A DNA stretch of 44,762 nucleotides from Candidatus Omnitrophota bacterium. Its GTDB lineage: Bacteria; Omnitrophota; Gorgyraeia; Aquiviventales; Aquiviventaceae. The translations under genes and the position numbers were made by a program. Position 1 is the first letter of the stretch. Every line of letters begins with the position of its first letter. Of the stretch, positions 22,154 to 43,855 are shown in pieces. The notes beneath the pieces were generated by a model that saw only the letters and a program-made list of their open reading frames with translations, had not been told where the DNA came from and made no database searches. The DNA lies in assembly GCA_023247195.1 (NCBI GenBank), contig JAHFGY010000005.1:1-44762 (forward strand). Direction: 5' to 3'.

Positions 22154-22857
22154 GCAAAGAAGAAACCGCGTCGAAGTTTCAATCACGTTACTGCGTGGTG
22201 GTGCCGGCCTTCGAGGCCGCGGCTACCATCGGAGATTTGGTAAAGCGGATACGTCAGCAGGGGTTGACCGTTCTGGTGGTGGACGACGGTTCCAAAGACC
22301 GGACCGCATCCATCGCCTCCGAGCAAGGCGCCCTGGTCCTGAGCCATTTGAAGAACCGCGGCAAAGGAAATGCTCTGCGCACGGCCTTCAATTACGCGTT
22401 GCGCGCTCAATTTGACGGCGTGATCACCATGGACAGCGACGGGCAGCACCTTCCGGAGGAAATCCCCAAGTTGATCCAGTCCGGGGAGCGCCAGCACGCC
22501 GCGATCGTGCTCGGCAACCGGATGGACCAGGCTCAAGCCATGCCGTCGCTTAGGCGGCAGACCAATCAGCTGATGTCCGCGCTGATTTCCCGGGTGATCC
22601 GGCAGAAAGTGCCGGATTCCCAATGCGGATTCCGTATTATTCGCAAGGAAGTGCTAGCCGCTCTCACGTTGCGAGCCGAGCGGTTCGAGATCGAATCCGA
22701 GGTGGTCTTGGCGGCCGCCAAACAAAAGTGGAAGATCATCTCGGTTCCCGTGACAACTGTCTACCGTCCGGATGAGCGCAGCCATATCCGGCCGCTGCGG
22801 GACACCGCCCGTTTTATGGGTATTTTGTTCAAGCATACCTTCCAGTCTGCGGGTTGA
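22150..22857 (+). CDS. Family 2 glycosyltransferase
   Basis: The ATG at 22150 overlaps the previous TGA. Contains VVVPAFEAAATIGDLV, LVVDDGSKDRT and MDSDGQH (DxD-type) motifs. Confidence 0.85.
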   Translation: MSKEETASKFQSRYCVVVPAFEAAATIGDLVKRIRQQGLTVLVVDDGSKDRTASIASEQGALVLSHLKNRGKGNALRTAFNYALRAQFDGVITMDSDGQHLPEEIPKLIQSGERQHAAIVLGNRMDQAQAMPSLRRQTNQLMSALISRVIRQKVPDSQCGFRIIRKEVLAALTLRAERFEIESEVVLAAAKQKWKIISVPVTTVYRPDERSHIRPLRDTARFMGILFKHTFQSAG

Positions 22858-22883: not shown

Positions 22884-22894
22884 TTATATGCTCC

Positions 22895-22994
22895 ATGGAA
22901 AGGGCAAACTCACGGTGACGTGAGGGCGCAAAGCTTCTGGATCCCGATGGAAGCCCTTCGCTGAGCGAAGGGGTCGGGATGGCCGGGCTGCCGA
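22895..22994 (+). promoter_or_regulatory. c-di-GMP-I (GEMM-I) riboswitch aptamer, copy 1
   Basis: Reads AGGGCAAAC, then hairpin CUCACG-GUGA-CGUGAG (GNRA loop), then GGCGCAAAGC, a second helix, and GGGCUGCCGA. It matches the conserved blocks of the Vibrio Vc2 aptamer as I recall them, and matches copy 2 at 30282. Confidence 0.8.
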
Positions 22995-23014
22995 AGAGGT
23001 GGCCCGGATTTTTT
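22983..23014 (+). terminator. Intrinsic terminator (expression platform of riboswitch 1)
   Basis: The stem CCGGGCUGCC / GGUGGCCCGG has 10 bp including 2 G-U pairs, with loop GAAGA, followed by A and U6. The 5' arm reuses the aptamer 3' strand. Confidence 0.7.
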
Positions 23015-23142: not shown

Positions 23143-24699
23143 GTGAGCGCAAGAGAACCGCGTGTAGGGCTTTTTGTTGAGCCGCGCCAGATCTGCCTGG
23201 CTGAAGTAGCCAGCGGGCCGGGCGGGCCGCGTATTGTCCGCTCAGCTGAGGCTGAAGTACCCGAAGGGGGCGCGGCTGATCCGGCTTTGATGGCTGAGGT
23301 CCTGCGCCAGGTTGTGATGAAGTCAGGCATTCGCTCACGCCAGGTGGTGGTTGCGCTCGGAAGCTTGGATGCGATCATCCGCCGCTTCAGCATGCCGCTT
23401 CTTCCCCGCAAGGAATGGCCCAATTCAGTGCGATTTGAGGCGCAAAAGTACCTTCCATTCGATGTCCGCGGCCTTTATACCGATGCCGATAGCGTTCCGG
23501 ACAAGGCCAAGAAGCAGCTGGACGTGGTCTTTGTCGCCGCAAAGAAGGAGAGCGTTACCGGTATCCTCGAATTGCTTCGGCGGGTTGACCTGGAAGCGAC
23601 CGCCATTGAGCCGGTTGCCTGCGCGCTCCATCGGCTCTTACAGCTCGGGGTCAAAAAGGAAGCACCCGGTGTTTCGACCTACCTGCATGTTGACCGGGAA
23701 TCGGGAATGACTCTGCTGATTGCCAATCCCAAGTCGCTCTGGATGACTCGTGAAGGCGCGCTCGCAGCCGTGTCAACAGCCGAACCTGTTTCAAACGGCG
23801 TGGATCCGGAAACAATTGCTTCTGAGATCCGGCTGTCGCTGGACTATTTCGGCAAGCATTATCGGGAGGAAACGGTCAGCAAGATCATCCTTTTTGAGAA
23901 TCCCGCCAGCGCGGGAATGCAGAGCGTACTGACCCGGTTGCTCGGGCTTCCAGTCGAAACGCGCGATCCGATGAAGCTCTTGCGAGGTCATGTGCAGCCG
24001 ACATTGGGCATGGTCGGCGCGGTCGGTGCAGGGCTGCGGGGCCTGAATGTAGGCTCAGCCAAGCGCTTCAACCTGGTTCCCGAAGAGGCGGTATCAACGG
24101 CCCGTTCGATGCCGTCGCTCTCGCGCGAGGAACTGCTGCAGCAAATCGTGTTTTCGGCTTTGACGGGATTGGTGCTCGGAGCGGCTGCGGCCGGCTTGGC
24201 TTATTTCCCGGTGCGGTCTGAAGTGAACGCGGCGCAGCAGGAAGTTCAGGCTGTCCGGCAATCTTATCCGCCGTTGCAATCGAATCCCGTGCCGGCCACG
24301 GTCGAGGAAGCCGAAGCGCTCGCTGACAAGTTGGCTAAAGAGGCCAAATTCCTTTCCGAGGTCATGACAAACCGGATAGTTCTTACCCACAAGCTGAGCG
24401 AGCTGGCTAAGGCGACCCCCTCGGGCGTTTGGCTGACGGCTTTTGAATATGAAGACCGCCGGCTTGCCGACGCCGTTGGACCCAGAAATCTCCGAATGGA
24501 AGGCGCTGTTTACTTGGAAGACGGCAAGGATCATGTAGTAGTGATCAATCGATTCGCGTCCGCGCTCCGGGACAATGCTGTCCTTATGGGCGGTCTGGAT
24601 AGTCTGAAGATCGAGGGCATTCGCAAAGCGGTGATCCGTGAGGCGGACGTCACGACATTCACTCTTAAAGCCGAAGCCACACAGCCGCCGGTGAAATAG
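23143..24699 (+). CDS. Type IV filament assembly protein, natural PilM-PilN fusion (GspL-like architecture)
   Basis: 518 aa, with a GTG start 6 nt after GGAGG. The first ~300 aa are PilM-like. They are followed by RFNLVPEE (PilN N-terminal INLLP-type motif), one TM helix (IVFSALTGLVLGAAAAGLAYF), a coiled coil and a C-terminal periplasmic domain. Confidence 0.85.
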   Translation: MSAREPRVGLFVEPRQICLAEVASGPGGPRIVRSAEAEVPEGGAADPALMAEVLRQVVMKSGIRSRQVVVALGSLDAIIRRFSMPLLPRKEWPNSVRFEAQKYLPFDVRGLYTDADSVPDKAKKQLDVVFVAAKKESVTGILELLRRVDLEATAIEPVACALHRLLQLGVKKEAPGVSTYLHVDRESGMTLLIANPKSLWMTREGALAAVSTAEPVSNGVDPETIASEIRLSLDYFGKHYREETVSKIILFENPASAGMQSVLTRLLGLPVETRDPMKLLRGHVQPTLGMVGAVGAGLRGLNVGSAKRFNLVPEEAVSTARSMPSLSREELLQQIVFSALTGLVLGAAAAGLAYFPVRSEVNAAQQEVQAVRQSYPPLQSNPVPATVEEAEALADKLAKEAKFLSEVMTNRIVLTHKLSELAKATPSGVWLTAFEYEDRRLADAVGPRNLRMEGAVYLEDGKDHVVVINRFASALRDNAVLMGGLDSLKIEGIRKAVIREADVTTFTLKAEATQPPVK

Positions 24700-24708
24700 A
24701 GGCTCGCC

Positions 24709-25248
24709 ATGGGATCTTCGCCGAAGATGCAGCCACTCGCGATCACGCTGGGCCTAGCTTTGGCCGCGTTCATGGTTGGACGCAACATGGTGATTCAGCC
24801 GGCAAAATCCATGGTCATGCGATTGAAAATGGAAAAACAAACGGAAGAACGCAAGGGCCAGGCGATCGGCCGCATCGCGGACTTTGAGCGGCAGATCAAC
24901 GCTGGGCAGTCGGGCCTTTTGCCAAAAACAGACGCTTCAGCGTTTATTGAAATGCTGAACCGGATGGCCGAAGACTCGGGCGTCAGCCTGACCTCCGTGA
25001 CCCCGTTTCCCGTGGAGAAGATGGGGTCGTATGCCAGGCTTCCGATCCAGGTTGAAATGCGCTGCAGCTACCACCAGGTGGGCCGTTTTCTGAGCAAACT
25101 GGAGAGCTCGTCCACATTTATCAAAGTGGAAGTGTTGCAGATCCGGCAGCCTCCGGAAGTGCGCACCGCGGAGTCGACTGAGCCGGAAGAGTCAAAGTTA
25201 TCGGTCGTCATTCTCCTTAACGGACTTTCACGGGCTGAAGCGGGATGA
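24709..25248 (+). CDS. pilO: PilO/GspM-like inner-membrane assembly protein
   Basis: 179 aa with an N-terminal TM helix, a coiled coil, and a C-terminal SYARLPIQVEMRCSYHQVGRFLSKLES pattern typical of PilO. Confidence 0.75.
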   Translation: MGSSPKMQPLAITLGLALAAFMVGRNMVIQPAKSMVMRLKMEKQTEERKGQAIGRIADFERQINAGQSGLLPKTDASAFIEMLNRMAEDSGVSLTSVTPFPVEKMGSYARLPIQVEMRCSYHQVGRFLSKLESSSTFIKVEVLQIRQPPEVRTAESTEPEESKLSVVILLNGLSRAEAG

Positions 25249-25628
25249 AAAAAGCATTCGTTGTGTGGGTAGCATTATTCACGCTGTCTGCAGCGGTCGT
25301 CTCGGCCGCCGCGGCTACGGTTGAATATACGGGGGCAACGAACCGGGATCCGTTCAAGAGCCAGTTGCCCGCCGTCAAACAGCCCGCCAAGCCGGACGAG
25401 AAGACTTCGGCCAAGGACGAGCCCGTGACAGTGGATTTCCTCACGGTGACCGGCGTGGTCTGGGATTCGGAAAAGCCTCAAGCGATTATCAACGGGAAAG
25501 TCGTATCCATCGGGGGACAGGTTTCAGGCGCCGAACTCGTTGCGATCAACGAGGCAGGCGTTCAGGTCCGCTACAAGGGCAAGCTGTTCGTTCTGAAAGC
25601 GGGCAACAAGAAGGGTGGTCAGCCATGA
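25245..25628 (+). CDS. PilP-like periplasmic protein
   Basis: 127 aa with a signal peptide and an RDPF motif. The C-terminal beta-rich segment (VTGVVWDSEKPQAIINGKVVSIGGQV) resembles a PilP/GspC HR domain. The gene overlaps both neighbours. Confidence 0.6.
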   Translation: MKKAFVVWVALFTLSAAVVSAAAATVEYTGATNRDPFKSQLPAVKQPAKPDEKTSAKDEPVTVDFLTVTGVVWDSEKPQAIINGKVVSIGGQVSGAELVAINEAGVQVRYKGKLFVLKAGNKKGGQP

Positions 25629-27217
25629 AGCGCATTCGCCTTGGGTGGTTGGGTGCAGTCAGCATCTTATTGAGCCTGGCGAGTATCGCTTCGGAAGGGT
25701 TTGCCGCCGAGGTAGCCCAAGCTGTCCCTACTTCTTCTCGCACCGTCTCGATGGATTTCGAGGACGCGGACTTGAAGCTTGTCTTAAAGGTGCTGTCGCA
25801 ACAGGCTGGTATGAACTTCGTGGCTAGTGAGGACGCCGAAGCCAAGAAAGTCACGGTTTTCCTGAGCAATGTGTCGGTGAACGATGCCATCGATGCGATC
25901 ATTCGGGCGAACGGGCTTCGCTACGAGATGAAAGCCTCGAGCAATATCTTCATGGTTTACAGCTCGGACGAGCAAGGCCCGCTTCAAACCCGTGTCTTTA
26001 CGCTGAAGTTCCTGCGGCTGTCGATTTCATCGATCGACGTCGGCGGACAGAGCGTGTCGCGCGAGCTTCTGTCAAAAGAAGACATCGCGGCTCTATCGAG
26101 CGGAGGATCGGGCGGTTCTGCCGGCGCCAACCCCGGGGCAGCGGCGGAGGACAAGAAAGACAGCGGGAAGGAAGATAAGCTCACCGCTGAACGAGGCATC
26201 GACAAGCTTGTGGCAAGCCTCCTTTCGGATAAGGGCAAGATAGCGGTGGATGTGAATTCCAACAGCCTGATCGTCACGGATTTGCCGGACAAGCTGGCTG
26301 TTATTGAGACCGTTTTGAATCGCCTGGACGCTCCGCCGAAGCAAGTCATGCTGGAAGCGCAACTGCTTGAAACGAACGCGGGCCTTTTAGATGACAGGGG
26401 ACTGGACTGGGGAGGGGCGGACGGTGCCTTGGCGCGCATTGCCGGGCCCGCACGCGATACCCACTTTCCGTTCATGGGCGAGCGCTTGCACTCGCCGTTC
26501 CGCGCTAAGTCTGCCCAGGATAGCACCATAGGCTCATTGTTTACCTACGGCACCGTGGACTTTCAGAACTTCGCGGCAACATTGAGGTTCATCACCAGCC
26601 AGACCGACACGAAGATCCTGGCCCAGCCGCGGGTACTGACCATGAACAACGAAGCGGCTATCATCAAGCTCGTGACGAATACCGCCATCGCCCAAACGTC
26701 GACCATTACCGCGGCCCAATCCATCGCTACGCTCACTACGGGTGAGGCGCAAAGGCAGGAGACCGGAATCGTCTTAAAAATGACGCCACAGGTGAACACC
26801 GATGACTCGATCACGCTGTTCCTTGAGCCTTCTGTCACCACTGTCGCGACATCGGCATTTTTTCCCGATGACTTTTTGGATCCGACCACTCGGACCGTCC
26901 GCACCTCGGTCAGGGTTTTGCCAGGAGAGACGCTTGTTATCGGCGGCCTGGTCGATACGTCGAACGTTGGCACCGATAAGAAAGTTCCTTTTCTTGGCGA
27001 TGTACCGGTCATGGGCCGGTTGTTCAAGCTGAAGAGCAAGGATAATTCTGAAAGAGAACTCGTGATCTTCGTCACGCCCACACTTGTGCGCCGCTTTGAG
27101 AACGATTGGCGGCGCGAACAGAGCCCGGTCGCGGTTCGCGAACGCGAAATCGAGCAGGCGCTGCAATCGGTGTCGGATAGGCAGGTTCCCGATGGTCCGG
27201 CCAGTGTCGGCGAATAA
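25625..27217 (+). CDS. pilQ: Secretin (PilQ/GspD family), short form
   Basis: 530 aa with a signal peptide, an N0/STN-like domain, and a Gly/Ser-rich linker. The secretin core is LVIGGLVDTS...KVPFLGDVPVMGRLFK...ELVIFVTPTLV. No AMIN domains are evident. Confidence 0.9.
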   Translation: MKRIRLGWLGAVSILLSLASIASEGFAAEVAQAVPTSSRTVSMDFEDADLKLVLKVLSQQAGMNFVASEDAEAKKVTVFLSNVSVNDAIDAIIRANGLRYEMKASSNIFMVYSSDEQGPLQTRVFTLKFLRLSISSIDVGGQSVSRELLSKEDIAALSSGGSGGSAGANPGAAAEDKKDSGKEDKLTAERGIDKLVASLLSDKGKIAVDVNSNSLIVTDLPDKLAVIETVLNRLDAPPKQVMLEAQLLETNAGLLDDRGLDWGGADGALARIAGPARDTHFPFMGERLHSPFRAKSAQDSTIGSLFTYGTVDFQNFAATLRFITSQTDTKILAQPRVLTMNNEAAIIKLVTNTAIAQTSTITAAQSIATLTTGEAQRQETGIVLKMTPQVNTDDSITLFLEPSVTTVATSAFFPDDFLDPTTRTVRTSVRVLPGETLVIGGLVDTSNVGTDKKVPFLGDVPVMGRLFKLKSKDNSERELVIFVTPTLVRRFENDWRREQSPVAVREREIEQALQSVSDRQVPDGPASVGE

Positions 27218-27242: not shown

Positions 27243-28964
27243 ATGGCGACTCCCAAAGTCAAACTGGGCGATTTGCTTGTTTCCGCGGGACTCATCAGTC
27301 CCGAGCAGCTCTCGCGCGCTTTGGACGTTCAGAAGAAGAATCCGAGTGAAACGCTCGGAAGCGTGCTGCTGGGCTTGGGCGCTGTTTCGGAATCGGATCT
27401 TGTTCGTACGTTGAGCAAACAGCTCAACATCCCGTACGCCACGCGCGAGAAAGGCCTGCTCAGTCCGGCAAAGGATCAGGGGCTTGAACAGGTCCTCCCG
27501 GAAGAGATAGCGCGCCGCTACTGCGTGTTGCCGGTGTCCCGTCACCTGAATTCACTGACCGTCGCTTTAACAGACCCCTTGGATCTGCTGGTCGTGGACA
27601 ACATCAGGCGCGTGACAGGCTGCCAGATCAATCCCATCATCGCGCCGCGCAGCGACATTATGCTGAGCATCAGCGAGCTTTACGGCGAAGGGGGAATGCT
27701 CAAGGAAGCTGTCGCCGCTTCTTATCAAGAGTCGGATACCATCAGTTTCGACGGCAAGGCTGACGAACACCTTTCCCTGGATGATCTGGTCAGCAGCGCT
27801 GAAAAGCCGCCTGTTGTGAAGCTCACGGACCTCATCATCCGGCAGGCCATCAAGCAGCGCGCGAGCGATATTCACATCGAGCCGTTGCCGAGCGCTATCA
27901 GCATCCGGTATCGCATTGACGGCGTGCTGCACGAAATCGCTCCTCCGGATGCTCATATGCTGCTCCCGCTTGTTTCGCGCATCAAGATTCTCTCCAAGAT
28001 GGATATCGCGGAGAAGCGTCTGCCCCAAGACGGCAGTTTCCGGGCCACGATTGAGAACCGGCTCATCGACTTCCGCGTGTCCACGATTCCGGCGATGTCC
28101 GGAGAAAAGGTCGTGCTGCGCATCCTGGATCGCTCAGCCGTCTCTCTTGATCTCAACACGTTGGGTTTTGAGAAGGAAGAATTGGAGACCTTTCGCGAGG
28201 CGATTCATCGCCCTTATGGAATGATCTTGATCACCGGACCTACCGGAAGCGGCAAGACAACGACCCTGTACGCGGCGCTGAATGAAATAAAGAGCGTGGA
28301 GAAAAATATCACAACGATCGAAGATCCGGTCGAGTACCAGATCCCGGGGATTAACCAAGTTCAGGTGAAACCGGCCATTGGGTTGACGTTCGCGACCGGC
28401 CTCCGCGCATTCCTGCGTCAAGATCCGAATATCATTCTGGTGGGTGAGACACGCGATCTGGAAACCGCGCAGATCTGCGTGCGCGCGGCGCTCACCGGCC
28501 ATCTGGTTTTCACCACGCTGCACACGAACGACGCGCCAACAGCTATCTCCCGGATGATCGATATCGGCATTGAACCTTATTTTGTCACATCGTCATTGCT
28601 GCTGGTCGTGGCGCAGCGGTTGGTGCGGCAATTATGCGAAAAATGTCGCGAGCCCTACCGGCCCGATCCGCTCAAGCTGCCCAAGGACTTTCCAATGCCG
28701 CCGAACGGCATGCTCTTTCGCGCCAAAGGATGCGACGCCTGCTCCAATACCGGTTTTCTCGGCAGACGGGCTATTTATGAGATGATGCCCATGACGGAAG
28801 AGCTCTCTCATTTGAGCGCCACGCGAGCCCCAACCGCCGAGCTGCGGCGGGCGGCTCAAGCCGGCGGGATGCTGACTCTTCAAGAGGCCGGATTCCGCAA
28901 AGTTGCGGCGGGGCGCACGACCATCGAGGAAGTTCTGCGGGTCACCATGGCCAGCGGGACCTGA
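27243..28964 (+). CDS. pilB: Type IV filament assembly ATPase (PilB/GspE/MshE family) with MshEN-type N-terminal domain
   Basis: 573 aa with Walker A GPTGSGKTT, Walker B IILVGETRD, and a tetracysteine (CEKC...CDAC). The N-terminus carries two MshEN c-di-GMP-binding motifs. Confidence 0.93.
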   Translation: MATPKVKLGDLLVSAGLISPEQLSRALDVQKKNPSETLGSVLLGLGAVSESDLVRTLSKQLNIPYATREKGLLSPAKDQGLEQVLPEEIARRYCVLPVSRHLNSLTVALTDPLDLLVVDNIRRVTGCQINPIIAPRSDIMLSISELYGEGGMLKEAVAASYQESDTISFDGKADEHLSLDDLVSSAEKPPVVKLTDLIIRQAIKQRASDIHIEPLPSAISIRYRIDGVLHEIAPPDAHMLLPLVSRIKILSKMDIAEKRLPQDGSFRATIENRLIDFRVSTIPAMSGEKVVLRILDRSAVSLDLNTLGFEKEELETFREAIHRPYGMILITGPTGSGKTTTLYAALNEIKSVEKNITTIEDPVEYQIPGINQVQVKPAIGLTFATGLRAFLRQDPNIILVGETRDLETAQICVRAALTGHLVFTTLHTNDAPTAISRMIDIGIEPYFVTSSLLLVVAQRLVRQLCEKCREPYRPDPLKLPKDFPMPPNGMLFRAKGCDACSNTGFLGRRAIYEMMPMTEELSHLSATRAPTAELRRAAQAGGMLTLQEAGFRKVAAGRTTIEEVLRVTMASGT

Positions 28965-28979: not shown

Positions 28980-30197
28980 ATGCCACGATTTACCTACAGC
29001 GCGCGTCAGCCGGATGGACGAACGGTCACCGGCGAGCAGGAAGCGGCCAGCGAATATGAGGCGCTTCGGATCCTGCAGCAGCAAGGCTTTATCGTTACCC
29101 GCGTCCAAGAGGGAAAGTTGTCTGAATTGCCGACGAACCTGAACAACGTCCGGCGCCACAAGCGCATCCGCTCGCGCGATATGATCATGTACATCCGGCA
29201 GATGGCGACGCTACTAAGCTCGAATGTGCCGCTGCTGCGAGCGTTGGATGTGATCCGAAGCCAAACCGAGAGCCAGCACTTGGCGGATGTCATGGAAAAA
29301 ATGGCATCCGACATCCGCGCCGGCGCCACGTTCAAAGACGCCATGGGCCGGCATCCAAGGGTATTTCCCGTTCTTTGGTCTTTCCTTATTGATGCGGGAG
29401 AGGTGAGCGGCAAGCTGCCTTTGGTGCTTGAACAATTGGCCCTGTATGTTGAAACGAGCCAGCGCATCAAAACCAAATTCATCACCGCGATGTTCTACCC
29501 GGCGATCCTCACGCTGGTCGCGTCAGGAGCGGTGTCCGTGTTCTTGTTGTTTGTCATTCCCATCTTTAAAAACCTGTTCGACAGCTTTGGCGCAAAGCTT
29601 CCGCTGCTCACGCGGATGGTGATAGCCACAAGCGACGGGCTTCGGCACTATTTCATATTCGTTCTACTCGTGGGTTTTGCGGTCGGATTCTTCCTCAATC
29701 GATTCGTGCGCACGCCGTCCGGTAGGGCGACCGCGGACCGGTTGGTCCTGCGCGTGCCGTTCGTCGGCGCTTTCTTCAAAGATATTATCCTGGCCCGTGT
29801 CGCCAGCAGTCTTTATATCCTGATCAAGAGCGGCGTGAATATCCTTCGCGGCCTGGAAATCACAGCGAAAAGCTCCGGCAATATCGTCTTCGAGGATGCG
29901 CTGTTGCGCGTGCGGGACGAAGTACAGCATGGAAGGCCGATCGCGGTTTCGCTGGCAAAGCATCCCATTTTCCCCGGCATGTTGGTGCAGATGGTTATGA
30001 TCGGAGAAGAGAGCGGCCGTCTGGAAGAGCTTTTGGCGCGCGTTGCCGCCTACTATGAGGAGCAGGTGGACGTCTTTGTCAACCGGCTCAGCACTGTGCT
30101 TGAGCCCCTGATCCTCGTGGTCATGGGGGGCATTGTCGGCGTGCTGGTGATCGCTATGTTCCTGCCTATTTTCCGGCTTAGCTCTGTTATCCGCTAA
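28980..30197 (+). CDS. pilC: Platform protein PilC/GspF
   Basis: 405 aa with two T2SSF-type repeats and hydrophobic helices. Sits in the canonical position after the ATPase. Confidence 0.92.
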   Translation: MPRFTYSARQPDGRTVTGEQEAASEYEALRILQQQGFIVTRVQEGKLSELPTNLNNVRRHKRIRSRDMIMYIRQMATLLSSNVPLLRALDVIRSQTESQHLADVMEKMASDIRAGATFKDAMGRHPRVFPVLWSFLIDAGEVSGKLPLVLEQLALYVETSQRIKTKFITAMFYPAILTLVASGAVSVFLLFVIPIFKNLFDSFGAKLPLLTRMVIATSDGLRHYFIFVLLVGFAVGFFLNRFVRTPSGRATADRLVLRVPFVGAFFKDIILARVASSLYILIKSGVNILRGLEITAKSSGNIVFEDALLRVRDEVQHGRPIAVSLAKHPIFPGMLVQMVMIGEESGRLEELLARVAAYYEEQVDVFVNRLSTVLEPLILVVMGGIVGVLVIAMFLPIFRLSSVIR

Positions 30198-30202: not shown

Positions 30203-30232
30203 TTGACAATCTTCTCTTACCTCAGCCATACT
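30203..30232 (+). promoter_or_regulatory. Candidate promoter for riboswitch 2 (TTGACA-N18-CATACT)
   Basis: The -35 is a perfect match. The element lies about 50 nt upstream of the aptamer. Confidence 0.35.
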
Positions 30233-30281
30233 TAGTGTGTCTGGGCTCCTTGATAAACACCTGATGCGGATGACATTGAAG

Positions 30282-30357
30282 TGACAAGGGCAAACTCACG
30301 GCAACGTGAGGACGCAAAGCCTCCGGCCCCGGGAGATCGGGGTAGCTGGGCTGCCGA
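30282..30357 (+). promoter_or_regulatory. c-di-GMP-I (GEMM-I) riboswitch aptamer, copy 2
   Basis: Reads AAGGGCAAAC, then hairpin CUCACG-GCAA-CGUGAG (GNRA loop), then GACGCAAAGCCUCCGGCC, the inner helix CCCCG/CGGGG, and GGGCUGCCGA. This is very close to the Vc2 blocks GGGCAAAC / GACGCAAAGCCUCCGGCC / CCGA. Confidence 0.85.
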
Positions 30358-30378
30358 TTACGGCAGCCCTTCTTGTTT
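30348..30378 (+). terminator. Intrinsic terminator (expression platform of riboswitch 2)
   Basis: GGGCUGCCG-AUUA-CGGCAGCCC forms a perfect 9-bp stem, followed by UUCUUGUUU. The 5' arm is the aptamer 3' strand. Confidence 0.75.
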
Positions 30379-30477: not shown

Positions 30478-30891
30478 ATGAGCAAGCAAGATCTAAGAGG
30501 GGTTCTTAGCGGTCGCGGTGGTTTCACCTTGATGGAACTCATGATCGTCGGCATTATCTTGGCAGTGGTGGCTGGATTGGCCGTTCCCGGCTATATCTCC
30601 GCGGTTGAAAAATCCCGCAAGCAAGAGGCGCTGGAAACCCTGGGTGCTCTGCGGAATTCAGAGATTCGCTTTTTCGCCGGCAATGCCACTTACACTCCTA
30701 CGTTTACGCAGTTGGATTTTGATCCGACGAAAGCAACAGGCACGCCGTACTTTACCTACACTGCGGCGGGAGGCGCGACGTTTACCGGAACCGCAACGCG
30801 CAACGCAACGAAATTTAGCGCCTTGAGCGGCTGTACCGCGGGGTATACACTTACGATCACCGACCAGGGTGTTATTACGCAGGGTTGCTGA
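30478..30891 (+). CDS. Type IV pilin (candidate major subunit)
   Basis: 137 aa. The prepilin leader ends G|FTLMELMIVGIILAVVAGLAVPGY with Glu5. A C-terminal Cys pair (SGC...QGC) is present. Confidence 0.9.
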   Translation: MSKQDLRGVLSGRGGFTLMELMIVGIILAVVAGLAVPGYISAVEKSRKQEALETLGALRNSEIRFFAGNATYTPTFTQLDFDPTKATGTPYFTYTAAGGATFTGTATRNATKFSALSGCTAGYTLTITDQGVITQGC

Positions 30892-30943: not shown

Positions 30944-30983
30944 TGTGCCAGCCGCGCGATGTGTGGCTGGCACAACTCTTTTC
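30944..30983 (+). terminator. Terminator/attenuator-like hairpin after the first pilin gene
   Basis: TGTGCCAGCC / GGCTGGCACA forms a perfect 10-bp stem with an 11-nt loop, followed by the U-rich ACUCUUUUC. This is the typical arrangement after major pilin genes. Confidence 0.5.
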
Positions 30984-31008: not shown

Positions 31009-31425
31009 ATGACGGCAATGGTTCGAAACGATCGACGCGGTATGACGCTGATGGAGGTCATGATCGTCGTCATTGTCATGGCTGTGGTCGCGGCGCTGGC
31101 TGTCCCTGGCTACCGGCAAACAGTCGAACAGGCGCGATCGAGCGAAGGTACGACGAATCTGAATATTATTCTAATGGGGGAAAAGCTCTACAAATCCGAC
31201 AATAGCACGTTTATCGGCGGGTTGGCTTGCGCGAGCACCGGAACCCCGACTACATGTACCGCCATCAATACCGCGCTCAATACCGACATAACCGCTGAGT
31301 TTTACAACTTAGCCATTGGCGGCGCGACTAAAGCCACGTTCTCGGCAACGGCAACCCGAAGGGGCGGCACGAAAGTCTTTACGATCGATCAGACGGGAAC
31401 CATCACTTCAGCAGGCACGTACTAG
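31009..31425 (+). CDS. Type IV pilin / pseudopilin, second subunit
   Basis: The ATG at 31009 follows GGGGAG. The leader is MTAMVRNDRRG|MTLMEVMIVVIVMAVVAALAVPGY with Glu5. The ORF-track start at 30943 lies inside the hairpin and was not used. Confidence 0.88.
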   Translation: MTAMVRNDRRGMTLMEVMIVVIVMAVVAALAVPGYRQTVEQARSSEGTTNLNIILMGEKLYKSDNSTFIGGLACASTGTPTTCTAINTALNTDITAEFYNLAIGGATKATFSATATRRGGTKVFTIDQTGTITSAGTY

Positions 31426-31426: not shown

Positions 31427-32443
31427 ATGCGACATGGGCTCCGCCTCTCAGTTCTTCTATTTGTCGCCCTCGCTGCGGCCGGGACGGTTCGAGCCGAAGA
31501 TGTCACCCTCTCCACAGAGCATTCCTCTCCTACCGGGCGATACCGCACCGTTAATGCGAACGAGCGGCTCGATGTCGGCAGCGAGGCTACTTCCGGCGAC
31601 GCGGACTTATTTGGCAGCCTCGAGCTTGAAAAGGCAACGGGCGACCAGACACTGGCGGCATGGACTTCCGGCGGAAGGATGACGATCGAGGGAGGCCTCA
31701 ATATCCGGGACGCTGCGGGCGCTACCTCGTTGCTGTTTGTTGACGCGGCCACGAACCGGGTCGGAATCGGGAATTCGAATCCGCAGATGATGCTGGATGT
31801 AAGCGGACCGGTTCGGGCGATCAATATCCACTCCTACGCGGACGCGAGCACCGGCGATGCCGGTTTCTTTGAGCTCTTCGCGGCCAGCGATGCGTTTGAG
31901 ACTTTTGTTAATGAGCATGTTTCCGTGGCTTGCCATGCAGCCAATGCGCCGCCAGGGGTAAACGATTTTGATCTGCTTCCGCTCTATATCGACGGCAATC
32001 CACTTGTGCTCCAGGGAGAGCTTAAGCCGGGTGTCGTCGAAGCAGGCGGCCACGGCCAAGTAGTGATCAAGGGAGATCCCGTCCCGGGATTGGCCAATGT
32101 CGGACTAGTCGTTGGATACCAGAACTATGGCAAAGCGGCCGCCAACGTGGTCATGCCGAGTTCGCTTGAATTCAAGAAGGATGTCCAGCCGCTGGCACCA
32201 CAGGATTATCAAAGCATCCTTAAGAGCTTGGACACGTTCACGGTTGCTCGGTATCACTATTTAGAGGATTCTCCCGGTGCACCGCTTCAATTCGGTTTCA
32301 TTATGGAAGAAGCTCCCGAACAGGTGCGGTTGGAAGGGGGCATTAGCCTGTACGGGAGCTATGGCTATCTATACGCGGCGGCCAAAGCGCTCAAGGCCGA
32401 CCAAGACATGCTGAAAGCCCGCCTTGAGGCGCTTAAGAAATGA
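31427..32443 (+). CDS. Secreted tail-fibre-like protein 1 with C-terminal intramolecular-chaperone (Peptidase_S74-like) domain
   Basis: The ATG at 31427 gives a 338-aa protein with signal peptide ...GTVRA|EDVTLST. It has a NRVGIGNSNPQMMLDVSG fibre-repeat-like motif. The C-terminal domain runs from Ser245 (nt 32159): SSLEFKKDVQPL...FGFIMEEAPEQV...coiled coil. Confidence 0.8.
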   Translation: MRHGLRLSVLLFVALAAAGTVRAEDVTLSTEHSSPTGRYRTVNANERLDVGSEATSGDADLFGSLELEKATGDQTLAAWTSGGRMTIEGGLNIRDAAGATSLLFVDAATNRVGIGNSNPQMMLDVSGPVRAINIHSYADASTGDAGFFELFAASDAFETFVNEHVSVACHAANAPPGVNDFDLLPLYIDGNPLVLQGELKPGVVEAGGHGQVVIKGDPVPGLANVGLVVGYQNYGKAAANVVMPSSLEFKKDVQPLAPQDYQSILKSLDTFTVARYHYLEDSPGAPLQFGFIMEEAPEQVRLEGGISLYGSYGYLYAAAKALKADQDMLKARLEALKK

Positions 32444-33495
32444 TCCGGCGCTTGGGATTTTTCGGCGCGGCTTTCTTAGGGCTGTGCTCTTTGGCGGTTG
32501 CGGATGATGTGACGCTGACCTCTGCTTATCCGACCCCATATGGGGAATACGGGGACTTGACGATCCAGGATTCGGTCACCGTGGGCAAGAAGGCAACCGC
32601 AACCGGCGCCGCGACCATTTACGGTAACCTCGCGATTGCCGGCCCGGAAGATATCTCCGTGTGGGGGCCGCTCATTGTGGATCCCGCGGCCATTATCGCC
32701 GACTCGTCGCGGCCCGGCTTCTTCCGAGCGGATCCGAACAGCGTGGCTACGCTAAGAGTCGAAACCGACACGATTCCATCCCCACCCTGCGCGGCGCAAG
32801 ATTGGTACTGCCAATCGTACTGGGTCAGCATCGGAAAAACGAATAGCACAGCGCAATCTGAACTGGATGTGAACGGCCCGATTTACGCGGGCGAATTTCG
32901 AGCCGCGGACGGCCCGCTCGAGCAAACGCTCTTTTTAGAGACACGGGCCGATAACACAACCGCTCCGCCAAGGACATGGGGACAGCTCCGGGCCCAGGAT
33001 CCGGCCGGATGGGCCGGCCCCAGGAGCGTGCTGCGGGTCTTTGGCCAAAAAAAGATTGTTCTCAACCGGAACAGTCCCGGAAAAGTCCTTGTGGGCACCA
33101 ATACCGTTCCTGCGCAGTGCGCCGGTCCGAGCTTCAAATTTTGCGTGTCAAATACGCTTCAAACACGCATGAACACCCCGGCCCCCTATAGCTCTCGGGC
33201 TTTTAAGCGGGATATCGCTCCGCTGAGCGCTTCAGATTACCAGCATGTGGCCGACTGGCTCGGCCAATCCAATGCTATCTATTTCCGGTACAAGGAAGAT
33301 TCATCCGACGAGCCCTTAAGGCTGGGGCTGGTCGCGGAACAAGCTCCGCCGGAGATCCTGAGTGATTCCAAGCAGAATATCGCATTTGCCCAGCTCGTTG
33401 GGGCGCTGTACGCCGCAGCCAAATACCTCCATGAGCAGAACCAAGAATTGGAGGCGGAAGTGAGCCGCCTCGAGGCGGAGGTCAACGCTCCATGA
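32440..33495 (+). CDS. Secreted tail-fibre-like protein 2 with C-terminal S74-like chaperone domain
   Basis: 351 aa, joined to paralog 1 by an ATGA overlap. Signal peptide is ...SLAVA|DDVTLTSAYPTPYGEY. The C-terminal domain runs from nt 33190: SSRAFKRDIAPL...LGLVAEQAPPEI...coiled coil. Confidence 0.8.
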   Translation: MIRRLGFFGAAFLGLCSLAVADDVTLTSAYPTPYGEYGDLTIQDSVTVGKKATATGAATIYGNLAIAGPEDISVWGPLIVDPAAIIADSSRPGFFRADPNSVATLRVETDTIPSPPCAAQDWYCQSYWVSIGKTNSTAQSELDVNGPIYAGEFRAADGPLEQTLFLETRADNTTAPPRTWGQLRAQDPAGWAGPRSVLRVFGQKKIVLNRNSPGKVLVGTNTVPAQCAGPSFKFCVSNTLQTRMNTPAPYSSRAFKRDIAPLSASDYQHVADWLGQSNAIYFRYKEDSSDEPLRLGLVAEQAPPEILSDSKQNIAFAQLVGALYAAAKYLHEQNQELEAEVSRLEAEVNAP

Positions 33496-34700
33496 AACGG
33501 GCCAACCGCTGCGCACTCTTGGTATTCATGCTGCTTGCGGGCCGCACCGCCATCGCGCTCGCAGACGACGTCACGCTGACGACCTACCTGCCGTCTCCGG
33601 ATTGGGAAGACTACAAACGGCTGCAAGCAAGAGGTCAATTCACGATTGACGATGCGGCCGCGACGGCCGGCAGCCTGCAGATCTTCGGCAACTTGGACGT
33701 ATGGAATGGGTCGGTGACTGTCACGGGGGATGCTAATCCGATTCACTTCGGCCGGAACTGGGGACCGTACAGTACAGCTGGCACTCCCATTGATGGATTG
33801 CGCGTGCAGCCGGCCGCAAATTGTGTGTCCATTGGCACGAATACCTGCAATCCAGGAACATCGAAACTTAAGGTGTTCACCGCAATCCGCGGCAACGGCC
33901 TTTTTGTAAAGCCGCAAGGTCCTGAGCCAAATTATCTTTTCGCCAACGCCACGTGGACCGGAACACCGTGCCTCTTTGCTAGCCCCGCGAACCCTGATGG
34001 CACGCGTCGCGGATTTCTAGGGGCGCGGCGGATGATTGGCACGGGGCCCGCGCCAGCTGTGGATCCCTTTGCGCCGATGCGGCTGGAAGCCAGGCTTATT
34101 GAAATCGGCGATTGGCGACGCGCAGATATGGGCCTTCCCGTAATTCCTTGTCCGCCGAATCCGCCGACGCGATTCAAATGGTGCTCGACTCCTTACACCG
34201 GTCACCCGGACTATGGAGACACGACGCAAGGCATCTTGGTCGGCGTGGATACGATCCCTAATCCGGGGCAAGAGGATATTGTGCCGGCGGCAACCCCGCT
34301 ATGGTACCAGAATGTCGTCGTGCTCCAGGTTGGTGATCCTGCTAACCCGATGGATGCTTACTTTGGCAACAATATTCAAGCTTTTCCATCCTCGAGAGCC
34401 TTTAAAAAGGACATCGTGCCGTTGACCGCCGCGGAAATGAGCGGGTACTTGACTCAAGCCGCCAAGACGGACGTAGCGTATTACCACTATATTGGAGATC
34501 CGCCGGATCGCGCTCTGCGAATAGGTCTGATCGCGGAGGATGCTCCGAAAGAATTCAGCGACGGGAAATCGATTCACCTTTTCCAAGCGGCCGCCTATTT
34601 GACGGCCAGCATGAAGGCGCTCAAGATGGAAAACGATGCATTGCGGGCGCGCATCGAAGTGTTGGAAGCGAAGAAGGCAGCGCTGCGAAAGGCGCGGTAA
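33492..34700 (+). CDS. Secreted tail-fibre-like protein 3 with C-terminal S74-like chaperone domain
   Basis: 402 aa, joined to paralog 2 by an ATGA overlap. Signal peptide is ...AIALA|DDVTLTTYLPSP. The C-terminal domain runs from nt 34389: SSRAFKKDIVPL...IGLIAEDAPKEF...coiled coil. Confidence 0.8.
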   Translation: MKRANRCALLVFMLLAGRTAIALADDVTLTTYLPSPDWEDYKRLQARGQFTIDDAAATAGSLQIFGNLDVWNGSVTVTGDANPIHFGRNWGPYSTAGTPIDGLRVQPAANCVSIGTNTCNPGTSKLKVFTAIRGNGLFVKPQGPEPNYLFANATWTGTPCLFASPANPDGTRRGFLGARRMIGTGPAPAVDPFAPMRLEARLIEIGDWRRADMGLPVIPCPPNPPTRFKWCSTPYTGHPDYGDTTQGILVGVDTIPNPGQEDIVPAATPLWYQNVVVLQVGDPANPMDAYFGNNIQAFPSSRAFKKDIVPLTAAEMSGYLTQAAKTDVAYYHYIGDPPDRALRIGLIAEDAPKEFSDGKSIHLFQAAAYLTASMKALKMENDALRARIEVLEAKKAALRKAR

Positions 34701-34708: not shown

Positions 34709-35053
34709 ATGCGGCGGAATAGGCATGGATTCACTTTGCTGGAAGTTCTGATCGCCACGATTATCCTTGCGGGAATGGGGGCTATCCTTTTCGGTAGCTT
34801 TTTGACCGCTCGCCGATGGGTCGTGCAAGCGACGAGCGGCGTACCGATGAATCTGGCGCGCGAACGGTTGGATGAGCTTCAGATGTCCGTTCGCATGGAT
34901 ACCTGGAACACGGGGCAGATGAAGGTCTCGGCGCCGGCGTGGACCGCGGAGCCGGCCATTGTTTTGGACGGTGTTAGCTACACGCGCCGCACCCGGGTAA
35001 GTACCGTGCCGGGCATGCAGTACCGAAAAGTCGAGGCAAAAGTCGAATGGTAG
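34709..35053 (+). CDS. Minor pilin / pseudopilin (prepilin-type N-terminus)
   Basis: 114 aa: MRRNRHG|FTLLEVLIATIILAGMG with Glu5. Confidence 0.85.
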   Translation: MRRNRHGFTLLEVLIATIILAGMGAILFGSFLTARRWVVQATSGVPMNLARERLDELQMSVRMDTWNTGQMKVSAPAWTAEPAIVLDGVSYTRRTRVSTVPGMQYRKVEAKVEW

Positions 35054-35622
35054 CCCCCCGGCTCCGTCTTAACAAAGGGGTATCTCTCACCGAGCTGTTG
35101 CTCGCCACGATTCTCCTTTCCGTGATTTTCTTGGCGTGCATCTCGCTCTACCTCAGCGCCATGAATTTTCTAAAAGCGCAGAAAGACCGGTGGGCAAGAA
35201 TCGATTCCTTCCTAGCGATGGAGCACGTGGCACGGCGCATTGTCTTAGGCAACGACATTCTCGTGAATCCGGCGCAGAAATGGGTCAAAGTGCGGTGGGA
35301 TTACCAGGGCGACTACAACGTGCCTAACCGCACGCCGGAAAACTTTGCCGACGACCAATGGCTCAAATACGGCATCATCGGCAATGCGCTGCGTTGGCGG
35401 GTGGATGCGACGTCGGCGGCAAACGTCACCGCTGGGGATGCGGAGGTTCAAGCAGGCCTGTTTGTTGACGCCACGGCATCATTCTTTCTCTTGAATAACC
35501 CTCCGGGGCCTGCAGGGCCTCCCACGGTCGACGTGCGCTTGCGCACGCGCATCCAGCAAGCGCCCGATGTTTATATGACGCAGCACACCGGATTGATCGT
35601 GCGCGGACGGGCGGTGGACTGA
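35047..35622 (+). CDS. Minor pilin / pseudopilin (PilW/GspJ-like)
   Basis: 191 aa: ...RLNKG|VSLTELLLATILLSVIFL with Glu5. Overlaps the previous gene. Confidence 0.8.
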   Translation: MVAPRLRLNKGVSLTELLLATILLSVIFLACISLYLSAMNFLKAQKDRWARIDSFLAMEHVARRIVLGNDILVNPAQKWVKVRWDYQGDYNVPNRTPENFADDQWLKYGIIGNALRWRVDATSAANVTAGDAEVQAGLFVDATASFFLLNNPPGPAGPPTVDVRLRTRIQQAPDVYMTQHTGLIVRGRAVD

Positions 35623-36044
35623 TGACCAATCGCCGACTCAACGAACAAGGCGCAGCGCTGACTGTTGCCATCATGACGGTGCTGCTGCTGTCAATCCTCG
35701 GCGTCACGGTTTTGACGCTTGCGTATAATCAGGCCCGGTTAACGAACGCGGCGGTAGGGGGCCGGACAAAGGCTTTCTATCGGGCGCAGGCCGGGATGGT
35801 GGATGGGCAAGAGAAGATTCATGTAGGAAGCTGCCCGGCCTGCCAAAAGGTGGGATGCGCGAGCTGCGACTCGAGCTGTCCGACCTTTGGGGCGGCATGT
35901 CCTTACGAGAACCCAGGTCTGGATCCCAAGGCCTATTCGCTGGATGTCGACGGCGACAAAGTAATGGATACAACGGTCGACATTGGGCCGGTCGACGCGA
36001 AAACAAACCTCAGGGATATTGTGTCGCTGGGACTGCAGAACTAG
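35622..36044 (+). CDS. PilX/GspK-like minor pilin with Cys-rich insert
   Basis: 140 aa. The N-terminus NEQG|AALTVAIMTVLLLSILG lacks Glu5, as in PilX-N/GspK-type subunits. It has a six-Cys cluster and a DVDGD motif. Confidence 0.7.
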   Translation: MTNRRLNEQGAALTVAIMTVLLLSILGVTVLTLAYNQARLTNAAVGGRTKAFYRAQAGMVDGQEKIHVGSCPACQKVGCASCDSSCPTFGAACPYENPGLDPKAYSLDVDGDKVMDTTVDIGPVDAKTNLRDIVSLGLQN

Positions 36045-39545: not shown

Positions 39546-40262
39546 ATGCCGCGACAAGTGAAAAAAGCAAAGAATAATCAGACAGGTTTCCTGAGCTTGA
39601 TCTCGCACAAGCTGCATACGCCGCTTGCGGTCGTCCATTTGAAGGCTTCCATGCTGCTGGACGAAACGGACGGCGATCTGAACGAAAAGCAGCGGCGATC
39701 GCTGCAGGAAATCATGCGATACGCGCAGGAGCTGCGCTGGTCGATCGAGAAATTGCTCGTTTTCTCGGACATGGACCGCGTAGGGCCTTCAGCAGCGCCG
39801 CGTCCGGTGGATCTATCGAGCTATGTGCCATGGGGGGTGGAGCGCATCGTAAGGGAAGTGGGGAGCAGCCGCGTGCGGCTCGCGATCGGGAAAGTGATGC
39901 CCGGAATCAAACTGCGGATGAACGAAGTCTATATCGACTTAATTCTGCGGAACCTGATCGAGAATGCCGTGAAGTTTTGCGACAAGCCGGAAGTCCTAAT
40001 CGCGGTCGCACTGGAAAAACGGGGCGGAGATGCGCTACTGAGCATCGCAGACAATGGCCCGGGTGTTACCCCGGCGCAGCGGAAGAGGATATTCGAGCCG
40101 TTTTACCAAATCGAGGCCAACGCGAGCGGGCAGGTGCAAGGCATCGGGCTTGGCCTGGCGCTCGTGAAGCGGTTGGCTCAAGCGCACGGCGGCCGGGTTG
40201 AACTTCAGTCCAAACGCGGCAAAGGCACGACGATCTTGGTCAGACTCCCAGCGCTACCGTGA
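39546..40262 (+). CDS. Histidine kinase core (DHp + HATPase_c) without recognisable sensor domain
   Basis: ATG at 39546 (the ORF-track TTG at 39531 lies inside the terminator tail). H-box is FLSLISHKLHTPL, N-box is LIENAVKF, and G-boxes are DNGPGV and GIGLGLALV. Confidence 0.85.
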   Translation: MPRQVKKAKNNQTGFLSLISHKLHTPLAVVHLKASMLLDETDGDLNEKQRRSLQEIMRYAQELRWSIEKLLVFSDMDRVGPSAAPRPVDLSSYVPWGVERIVREVGSSRVRLAIGKVMPGIKLRMNEVYIDLILRNLIENAVKFCDKPEVLIAVALEKRGGDALLSIADNGPGVTPAQRKRIFEPFYQIEANASGQVQGIGLGLALVKRLAQAHGGRVELQSKRGKGTTILVRLPALP

Positions 40263-42993: not shown

Positions 42994-43060
42994 ACGCGGA
43001 CAAATATTCGCAGAAGTCTGCGCTCTGGTAGAATGGCGCAATAACAAAGGAGAATCGGCA

Positions 43061-43855
43061 ATGCCTGCGAACCGCTTCATCCATTCCGTGCTCGTTGTCA
43101 GTTGTCTCCTCTGGGGAGTACCCCTCGCATCCGCCGCGCCGCATAGCCAGACCGTTGAGTACCGAGATGGGGACGCGGTGCTGGAGGGCTACCTTGCTTA
43201 CGACGATTCGATCCAAACCCCGCGGCCCGGCATCTTGGTTGTGCATGAATGGAAAGGCCTGAATGACTACGCCAAACGGCGGGCAGATCAGCTGGGGGAG
43301 CTGGGGTACGTGGCATTCGCGGCCGACATGTACGGCAAGGGCGTGTACGCAAAGGATCACGATGAAGCGGCGAAACTCTCGGGCATCTACCGGAACGACC
43401 GGGCGCTCATGCGGGCCCGGGTAACCGCGGCGCTCGATGAGCTCAAATCGCTCCCACAAGCGGATCCCAAACGCCTCGCGGCTATCGGCTATTGTTTCGG
43501 CGGCATGAGCGTGTTGGAACTGGCGCGCAGCGGGGCGGATGTGCGCGGAGTGGTGAGCTTTCATGGAGGGTTATCCACGCCGAACCCGGAAGATGCGAAG
43601 CAAATCAAAGGACGTATCTTGGCGTTGCATGGCGCGGATGACAGGTTCGTAAAGCCGGAAGAAGTCGCGGCTTTCGAAAAGGAAATGAAAGACGCCGGCG
43701 TCGCCTATAAGTTGATTAAATACCCGGGCGCGGTGCACGCATTCACCGTGGCGGAAGCCGGGAACGACCCTTCCACAGGCATGGCTTACAACGCGGATGC
43801 GGATCAGGCATCGTGGGCTGAGCTTGTAAAATTCCTGGCGGAGGAGCTCAAATAG
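43061..43855 (+). CDS. Dienelactone hydrolase family protein (secreted)
   Basis: 264 aa with a signal peptide. Contains PGILVVHEWKGLNDY, the nucleophile elbow IGYCFGG, and GAVHAF. Confidence 0.88.
   Translation: MPANRFIHSVLVVSCLLWGVPLASAAPHSQTVEYRDGDAVLEGYLAYDDSIQTPRPGILVVHEWKGLNDYAKRRADQLGELGYVAFAADMYGKGVYAKDHDEAAKLSGIYRNDRALMRARVTAALDELKSLPQADPKRLAAIGYCFGGMSVLELARSGADVRGVVSFHGGLSTPNPEDAKQIKGRILALHGADDRFVKPEEVAAFEKEMKDAGVAYKLIKYPGAVHAFTVAEAGNDPSTGMAYNADADQASWAELVKFLAEELK

Follow-up and report, generated by a model that had tools for sequence, protein, structure and literature searches.

The window analysed here, a 44,762-nucleotide (nt) stretch of contig JAHFGY010000005.1 of a Candidatus Omnitrophota bacterium, carries three adjacent genes that encode short secreted fibre chains of the Peptidase_S74 (S74) family. 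These genes, designated A, B and C, lie within a type IV filament operon between pilin and minor-pilin genes. We propose that the three chains form one heterotrimeric, self-cleaving fibre whose N-termini dock on a tip of three minor pilins, thereby filling the role that the adhesin PilY1 has on other pili. We assign this reading a probability of roughly 0.45. It builds on the S74 features of the chains, on their conserved genetic linkage to the minor pilins, on the joint inheritance of three distinct orthogroups and on the charges of their terminal helices.

Architecture of the three fibre chains

All three chains follow one layout, in which a signal peptide precedes the conserved N-terminus of the mature protein, a V(G/S)IG...P...L(D/K)V motif and a conserved C-terminus of about 95 amino acids (aa). 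The family signature reads signal peptide, [ED][ED]xTxTTYYPSPYGxYxxL, capping loops and S74 domain (Table 1). The middle regions diverge strongly, and the pairwise identity among A, B and C amounts to 25-33%, depending on the alignment. Their capping loops (VGIGNSNPQMML, VSIGKTNSTAQSEL and VSIGTNTCNPGTSKL) fit the pattern V-G-G/N-pi-x-x-P-x-x-x-L of the MAT fibres of Bdellovibrio bacteriovorus. With the S74 domain cut off, the mature chains would comprise about 221, 229 and 275 aa. The genes are tightly packed: the stop and start codons of A/B and B/C overlap as ATGA (32440-32443 and 33492-33495), chain A begins after a 1-nt gap to pilin 2, which ends at 31425, and 8 nt separate chain C from the minor pilin at 34709. 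NCBIfam holds no model for any of the chains. A lipoprotein assignment of chain B, considered for its GLCS sequence, was rejected, as the residue preceding the Cys is unfit for a lipobox.

Against PF13884 (Peptidase_S74, gathering score 22 bits), chains A, B and C score 17.9, 16.9 and 19.5 bits, which is below gathering (E 1e-3 to 8e-3), with matches that begin at profile position 1. Their six orthologues in the related loci L007 and L008 (23-33% identical) all exceed the cut-off with 23.9-34.9 bits. PHROG tail-fibre families match the C-termini as well, for chain B phrog_18983 with an E-value of 3e-8. Searching the PDB with an 81-sequence family profile returned the ICA domain of the myelin regulatory factor MyRF as best sequence match (E 7.7e-9), the L-shaped tail fibre of phage T5 (E 4.3e-8), in which the catalytic SGIEYKKDV was aligned to SSRxFKKDI, and the Bdellovibrio proteins Bd2133 (E 2.6e-7), Bd3182 and Bd1334. 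This larger profile was needed, since 3- and 11-sequence profiles gave no significant match in the same database. An exhaustive HMMER search with the family profile collected 11,168 proteins at E<=1e-3, dozens of them full-length relatives of 320-420 aa.

A Ser...Lys pair with i/i+5 spacing is present in all three chains. Ser and Lys are each conserved in more than 90% of the 81 relatives and align with Ser1264/Lys1269, which carry out the cleavage of T5 pb1 (PMC4690869), and the chains may cleave themselves in the same manner. In some relatives the position of the catalytic Ser is taken by Cys (C-S-R-x-x-K; L007:7995-9005, P0031, P0039, P0068, P0085 and P0099), and P0054 has lost this Ser altogether. 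Chains with Cys might cleave via the thiol or not at all, which would be of interest in a mixed trimer.

An AlphaFold2 model of chain A calculated from the 81-sequence alignment reached a pLDDT (predicted local distance difference test) of 77.9, with 87-97 over residues 250-338; an alignment of 8 sequences had given an unusable model (pLDDT 37.8). The predicted fold contains a helix at 258-268, strands and a 30-residue helix at 308-337. The best PDB matches found by Foldseek are Bd2133, Bd3182, the MyRF ICA domain and the intramolecular chaperone 3GW6, and for 7DC3 the TM-score on the target was 0.51-0.54. In addition, 83 viral models matched at E<=1e-3; S74 proteins predominate among those of the best 50 that carry a name. 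The heptad pattern of the terminal helix has Asn or Gln at a core position. The C-terminal helices of T5 pb1 assemble into a central trimeric coiled coil that has an Asn in its core and whose register is set in part by salt bridges between chains (PMC4690869).

On the basis of these profile matches and the model, we accept chains A, B and C as members of the S74 family. An earlier sequence-only reading of the window had placed three tail-fibre-like genes between the pilins at 30478 and 31009 and the minor pilins at 34709-36044. Open reading frames (ORFs) and Pfam scans agree with these positions, and the translational coupling that it described through both ATGA overlaps and the 1-nt gap is present. 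The shared architecture that it listed, from leader and N-terminus to the VGIG/VSIG motif and C-terminus, was recovered on the sequences, the leaders being judged by eye. Its assignment of the C-termini to S74, including the Ser...Lys pair, is borne out by the orthologues above the cut-off, by the family profile with its matches to MyRF, T5 and Bd2133, and by the resemblance of the AlphaFold2 monomer to Bdellovibrio MAT fibres, MyRF ICA, 3GW6 and viral S74 proteins.

Conserved linkage of fibre genes and minor pilins

The genetic linkage of the fibre genes to the minor-pilin module is conserved: fibre genes recur beside pilin or minor-pilin genes in at least nine lineages and in three operon layouts. 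A triad between pilins and three orthologous minor pilins is found in the window and L006, in L001/L002, L003, L007, L008, L009-L011 and L016, and L004 contains the beginning of a triad on a short contig. These triad loci span 40-66% guanine-plus-cytosine (GC) content, with 65% and 46% in the long contigs L007 and L008 and 40% in L009-L011. Their ATPases are 63-73% and their minor pilins 28-46% identical. The nearest relatives of this bacterium come from groundwater metagenomes. Operons of the same kind in L012 (labelled Omnitrophota), L014/L015 and L018 have four pilin-like genes and, immediately after them, one or two fibre genes that share the N-terminal motif; in L018 the pilin-fibre block is located upstream of the machine genes.

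No PilY1-type domain (PF05567) was matched by Pfam in the fibre proteins or other scanned ORFs of the window, and the related-locus tables do not contain it either, which leaves the role of a tip adhesin vacant. Likewise, Pfam scans of the large ORFs in the window detected no capsid, tail, baseplate, lysis or integrase neighbours, phage-type genes were not found in the related loci, and a motif scan of IMG/VR yielded no close relative. Full-text literature searches revealed no paper linking the S74 or "chaperone of endosialidase" domain with pilins, and two Omnitrophota papers that discuss type IV pili (one of them PMC10066038) make no mention of S74, endosialidase or secretin. The sequence-only reading had reported a window free of phage genes and of a PilY1-type adhesin, had known of no described locus with this arrangement and had proposed a survey of homologous neighbourhoods. 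The scans and literature searches support the first three statements, and the survey found relatives adjoining pilins in at least nine lineages with no close relative in phage collections. None of the outcomes that the sequence-only reading had named as refuting it was obtained.

Several other proteins touch on this family. Among P0017-P0150 are giant proteins of 2,000-6,600 aa with 10-47 copies of the fibre repeat (profile positions about 50-137). Some of them end in S74, the family N-terminal motif is lacking, and a connection with the giant ORFs that have been described for Omnitrophota is possible. A Planctomycetales S74 protein beside tail-collar-domain genes has neither the N-terminal motif nor a pilus context and was not counted as a member in the narrow sense. 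In three of the more distant triad loci a coiled-coil protein of 264-298 aa without specific family match follows the minor pilins (L007:11382-12188, L008:11466-12260, L009:12452-13348); it is absent from the window.

Three co-inherited orthogroups and helix charges

The 96 relatives cluster into three clean orthogroups (A, B and C), all of which are represented once, and only once, in each complete locus. Genes are ordered either A-B-C or B-A-C, with C always last and adjoining the minor pilins. Judged by their sequences, chains A, B and C are old orthogroups and not recent interchangeable paralogues, and the one-of-each pattern with fixed C is unlike a variable receptor-binding repertoire. 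Three old orthogroups inherited together favour one heterotrimer over three homotrimeric fibres.

After heptad assignment, the mean net charge of the terminal helix is +1.3 for A, -1.5 for B and +3.1 for C. We scored possible trimers by the summed charge products of the g-e' pairs, negative values denoting attraction. The arrangement A>C>B showed a mean score of -3.3 (-3 to -6 in five of five complete loci), compared with +0.3 for AAA, +3.0 for BBB, -0.5 for CCC and +0.3 for the reverse order A>B>C. Relatives that belong to none of the three orthogroups, including several fibres encoded by one or two genes, reached -3.0 when paired with themselves. Taken together, the one-of-each inheritance, the ATGA coupling and the charges lead us to favour a single A-B-C fibre, at about even odds.

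Filament machine and predicted regulation by cyclic di-GMP

The fibre genes are preceded by a complement of filament genes, whose coordinates are given in Table 1. Orthologues of the PilM-PilN fusion carry both PilM_2 and PilN, and the PilP position is occupied by a gene of 100-195 aa in L009, L012, L014 and L018 also. The N-terminus of the assembly ATPase is a MshEN domain, which binds cyclic di-GMP (c-di-GMP; NF053729, 59.9 versus a cut-off of 38).

Table 1. Coordinates of the filament and fibre features in the window; slashes in pilin peptides mark the processing site.
Feature	Positions	Strand	Evidence and remarks
c-di-GMP-I riboswitch aptamer, 5' of PilM-like gene	22893..22995	+	RF01051, 55.5 bits (gathering 35)
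PilM-PilN fusion, GspL-like architecture, assembly platform	23143..24699	+	PF11104 PilM_2, TIGR01175; 518 aa
PilO/GspM-like alignment protein	24709..25248	+	T2SSM_b E 4e-12, PilO E 1e-9, GspM_XpsM 56.6 bits
Small secreted protein, PilP position	25245..25628	+	127 aa, signal peptide, no family match
Outer-membrane secretin	25625..27217	+	PF00263 E 1e-38, Secretin_N, STN; GspD and PilQ equal, 210 bits each
Assembly ATPase PilB/GspE	27243..28964	+	T2SSE E 1e-136; TIGR02538 PilB 609 versus GspE 586 bits
Inner-membrane platform PilC/GspF	28980..30197	+	T2SSF twice; GspF 373 versus PilC 326 bits
c-di-GMP-I riboswitch aptamer, 5' of pilin 1	30279..30358	+	RF01051, 71.8 bits
Pilin 1 (G/FTLMEL), probably major pilin	30478..30891	+	N_methyl/ComP_DUS, PilA/GspG N-terminal matches
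Pilin 2 (G/MTLMEV)	31009..31425	+	N_methyl E 2.7e-7; opens the tightly packed pilin-fibre-minor-pilin block
Fibre chain A	31427..32443	+	338 aa; signal peptide 1-23; N-terminus EDVTLSTEHSSPTGRY (docking-type)
Fibre chain A, fibre part and S74	32159..32440 (S74)	+	Capping loop VGIGNSNPQMMLDV, beta-rich; S74 245-338 (S245/K250)
Fibre chain B	32440..33495	+	351 aa; signal peptide 1-21; N-terminus DDVTLTSAYPTPYGEY
Fibre chain B, S74	33190..33492	+	251-351 (S251/K256); acidic terminal helix
Fibre chain C	33492..34700	+	402 aa; signal peptide 1-24; N-terminus DDVTLTTYLPSPDWEDY; Cys-containing insert
Fibre chain C, S74	34389..34697	+	300-402 (S300/K305); basic terminal helix
Minor pilin, GspI/PilV-like (G/FTLLEV)	34709..35053	+	N_methyl; weak XpsI, GspJ, PilV matches
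Minor pilin, GspJ/PilW-like (G/VSLTEL)	35047..35622	+	191 aa; weak N_methyl, PilV matches
Minor pilin, GspK/PilX-like (G/AALTVA), without Glu5	35622..36044	+	PilX_N E 5e-4

Pilin 2 is possibly the GspH/FimU equivalent and is related to L012_2, L014_2 and L018_2. The GspI/PilV-like minor pilin has orthologues in L007, L008, L009 and L016, as has the GspJ/PilW-like protein, in this case with 38-42% identity. The third minor pilin is predicted to be the tip-most subunit; GspK/PilX-type tip subunits lack Glu5 as well, and its orthologues keep a G-x-ALT-L/V-A-I N-terminus.

A terminator-like hairpin (30348-30369) overlaps the second riboswitch aptamer, and a promoter-like site (30203-30232) precedes it. 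Directly 3' of pilin 1 we found a strong hairpin (30944-30974; 14 bp, 9 of them GC, T-tract), which sets pilin 1 apart from the block of pilin 2, fibres and minor pilins. It looks like an attenuating terminator that would keep the major pilin in large excess over the products of the downstream genes, and the arrangement suggests that pilin 1 is the abundant subunit while the block that starts with pilin 2 is a unit of lower expression. The riboswitches together with the MshEN motif of the ATPase indicate that c-di-GMP acts at two levels. A c-di-GMP riboswitch was not found in L003, L007, L008, L009, L012, L014, L015 and L016, pointing to a lineage-specific regulation outside the conserved module.

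Proposed mechanism and alternative explanations

For the proposed tip fibre, we infer the trimer composition, the cleavage, the docking on pilins and the passage through the secretin as follows. Chains A, B and C would be exported by Sec and lose their signal peptides. In the periplasm, the S74 domains would gather the three chains via the central coiled coil, with charges favouring A-C-B, and would chaperone the folding of an intertwined beta-fibre. The Ser-Lys dyad would then cut off S74 before S245, S251 and S300 and expose the distal tip. If the chains are oriented like phage fibres, they would attach by the N-terminus and bind with the tip that cleavage exposes. The N-termini of the [ED][ED]-V-T-L-T-T-Y-Y-P-S-P-Y-G-x-Y type may fasten the fibre to the priming and capping complex of the filament, which consists of the I-, J- and K-like minor pilins, and the extending filament would carry it through the secretin, so that a receptor-binding adhesin is displayed at the tip as PilY1 is in type IVa pili (T4aP). 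In the lineage of the window, expression would be under c-di-GMP control.

Several observations weigh against this reading. The charge score is crude, being a count over four g-e' pairs, and in the window the CCC homotrimer ties with the A>C>B heterotrimer (-3). The variant loci carry one or two fibre genes, which means that family members can do without a heterotrimer. The AlphaFold2 model is a monomer with only moderate confidence in region 24-90, and the Sec-type leaders, which end VRA/ED (A), AVA/DD (B) and ALA/DD (C), were read by eye. A 186-aa relative (P0118, L017:658-1218) with signal peptide, TTYYPSPYG motif, S74 and almost no fibre is encoded between pheS and pheT, where there is no pilus locus, and the N-terminal motif is thus not confined to such loci. 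Finally, the scores of ATPase, platform and secretin are all below the equivalog cut-offs for T4aP or the type II secretion system (T2SS), and no retraction ATPase (PilT) was found in the window. As the family scores do not separate the two systems and PilT is missing from the window, the gene set would suit a cargo role just as well.

Alternatively, A, B and C could each form a homotrimer with a distinct receptor specificity, much like the members of the MAT family or the fibres of multi-fibre phages, and all three would use one machine. The strong differences between the middle regions of the paralogues fit such an arrangement, as do the S74 structures that we encountered, all of which are homotrimeric (T5 pb1, PMC4690869; Bd3182, PMC10769870). 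The helices themselves speak for it only in the case of C, whose homotrimer equals the heterotrimer score in the window and in L001. In contrast, the B helices are acidic and self-repulsive and those of A neutral to repulsive, while A>C>B reaches the value of the self-complementary relatives outside the orthogroups. One or two fibre genes suffice in the variant loci, but the strict one-of-each inheritance with fixed C across 40-66% GC is unlike the gain, loss and tip-swapping of receptor-binding repertoires, and the ATGA coupling favours equimolar synthesis. We regard separate homotrimers as a possible but less probable solution.

The main alternative concerns the machine. In a T2SS-like system, a short pseudopilus would push fibres that have folded and cleaved themselves in the periplasm through the secretin, to be retained on the surface in the manner of MAT fibres or released, with the N-terminus acting as secretion or surface-anchor signal instead of a lasting attachment to the tip. 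T2SS-like traits are indeed present: the platform scores higher for GspF than for PilC, the alignment protein is of GspM type, the PilM-N fusion resembles GspL, and the five pilin-like genes could be counted as GspG-K. The fibres bear Sec signal peptides as judged by eye. Type IVb pilus operons encode the secreted proteins TcpF and CofJ, whose N-terminal segment binds the tip minor pilin before release. MAT fibres are located on the surface (PMC10769870). However, the coupling of the fibre genes within the minor-pilin block implies a low, pilin-matched stoichiometry that would be unusual for secreted cargo, and pilin 1 has its own riboswitch leader and terminator-like hairpin in the manner of abundant major pilins. 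Moreover, the Omnitrophota systems are treated in the literature as T4aP and are expressed in V. archaeovorus (PMC10066038). As a whole, export as cargo is possible but less probable than the tip fibre, with a standing similar to that of the homotrimers.

Genomic setting and neighbouring genes

The contig is part of the core chromosome of an uncultured Omnitrophota bacterium. It contains a complete-looking ribosomal-protein operon (431-15580, + strand) with L3, L4, L2, S3, S17, L5 ... SecY, Adk, Map, S4, RpoA and L17, and its RpoA is 81-85% identical to the named matches labelled Candidatus Omnitrophica. According to the Pfam scans of large ORFs, metabolic genes, glycosyltransferases and the type IV filament machine make up the remainder. 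The S74 domains and capping-loop repeats are typical of phage fibres, Bacillus phage tail fibres are the best matches among GenBank phages and PHROG tail-fibre families match the C-termini; nevertheless, a prophage- or tailocin-derived passenger without functional tie to the filament genes is very improbable and was rejected, given that the phage matches are limited to the C-terminal 40% at 26-29% identity, that IMG/VR contains no relative by the motif scan, that the window is core chromosome devoid of phage genes and that synteny with pilins is kept over deep divergence in three operon layouts.

Downstream of the minor pilins, on the minus strand, lies a gene for a 929-aa PcRGLX/GH127-like protein with a lipoprotein-like leader (36010-38799), which is transcribed towards the last minor-pilin gene, with an overlap of 35 nt between the two. 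L001 and L006 also have this gene next to the operon, whereas L007-L009 do not. A second large glycoside-hydrolase-like gene encodes a 946-aa GH94-like protein (40240-43080, minus strand). Upstream, GT28/MGDG-synthase-like, acyltransferase and GT2 genes (20110-22857) accompany the filament and fibre genes. Wzy_C and GT2 genes are inserted between the ATPase and PilC genes of L012 (4259-6437), and STT3 oligosaccharyltransferase and GT2 genes follow the fibres of L015 (3321-9148). Glycosylation genes at several loci hint at glycosylated pilins or fibres.

Comparison with known systems

Omnitrophota are widespread, uncultured and ultra-small bacteria that are thought to be predators or parasites, and type IV pili are among their "symbiosis" traits (PMC10066038). 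The locus provides a testable candidate for attachment to host or prey, in which a phage-style receptor-binding fibre would be genetically wired into the pilus tip module. It extends the cellular use of the self-cleaving S74 chaperone beyond the Bdellovibrio MAT fibres, suggests an answer to the question of what anchors cellular S74 fibres and, if confirmed, would represent the first S74 heterotrimer and possibly a new way to arm a pilus. The small size of the mature chains (about 220-275 aa) eases expression and modelling.

A more far-reaching version, which we consider speculative and less probable than the tip fibre as such, would have host-dependent Omnitrophota nanobacteria extend and retract a filament with a phage-type fibre at its tip. 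No S74 fibre before it would have been heterotrimeric, each N-terminus would be docked on one of the I-, J- and K-like pilins, and self-removal of S74 would arm the tip. If true, three distinct N-terminal peptides would reconcile the three-fold symmetry of the fibre with the asymmetry of the pilin cap, the result being a cellular harpoon built of phage and pilus parts. Along the same lines, one could explain the retention of MAT fibres on the Bdellovibrio predator.

With regard to position, PilY1 offers a parallel. It is a Sec-exported non-pilin that is encoded among minor pilins and borne at the tip (PMC7541494), where it is proposed to sit on the priming complex of minor pilins and to mediate adhesion. 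The fibre chains, like PilY1/PilC-type adhesins of FimU-PilVWX pili, are Sec-exported non-pilins encoded inside a minor-pilin operon, also in the related loci, and the position of the fibre genes mirrors that of pilY1 within fimU-pilVWXY1E. In contrast to the large monomeric beta-propeller of PilY1, to which there is no sequence or fold relationship, they are predicted to be small trimer-forming beta-fibres with a self-removing chaperone.

A C-terminal intramolecular chaperone, predicted to form a central trimeric coiled coil, links the chains to the S74 (CIMCD) fibres and spikes of phages, such as K1F endosialidase (3GW6) and T5 pb1 (4UW8/8HQZ). Common features are the Ser-Lys pair at i/i+5 with cleavage expected before the Ser, the N-terminus as attachment end and the C-terminal tip as receptor end. 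Unlike these phage proteins, the chains described here belong to no virion, have no phage genes nearby, are exported by Sec, are much shorter and occur as three co-inherited paralogues. The capping loop (VGI..P..L.V) and terminal coiled coil of the MyRF ICA domain are also present in the fibre chains, but MyRF itself is a membrane-bound transcription factor of eukaryotes, and its biological role is unrelated.

The closest known proteins, by profile and fold matches (the PDB entries being tips), are the MAT fibres of B. bacteriovorus, an S74 subgroup exemplified by Bd3182 (Caulton et al. 2024, PMC10769870). Both are cellular proteins with a signal peptide, V-G-G/N-x-x-x-P-x-x-x-L capping loops and a C-terminal S74 with Ser...Lys, in both cases a conserved N-terminal region is proposed to keep the fibre attached to the producing cell, and both come from bacteria with a proposed predatory or host-dependent lifestyle. 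MAT fibres are homotrimers of about 1,000 aa with swapped tips, encoded by 21 genes dispersed in the genome, and share a conserved beta-rich N-terminal domain of about 130 aa (PMC10769870). The chains of the window differ from them in their length of 338-402 aa, their three fixed orthogroups, their embedding in a minor-pilin operon and helix charges that suggest a heterotrimer. For the MAT fibres, the authors themselves raise a possible interplay with type IV pili (PMC10769870).

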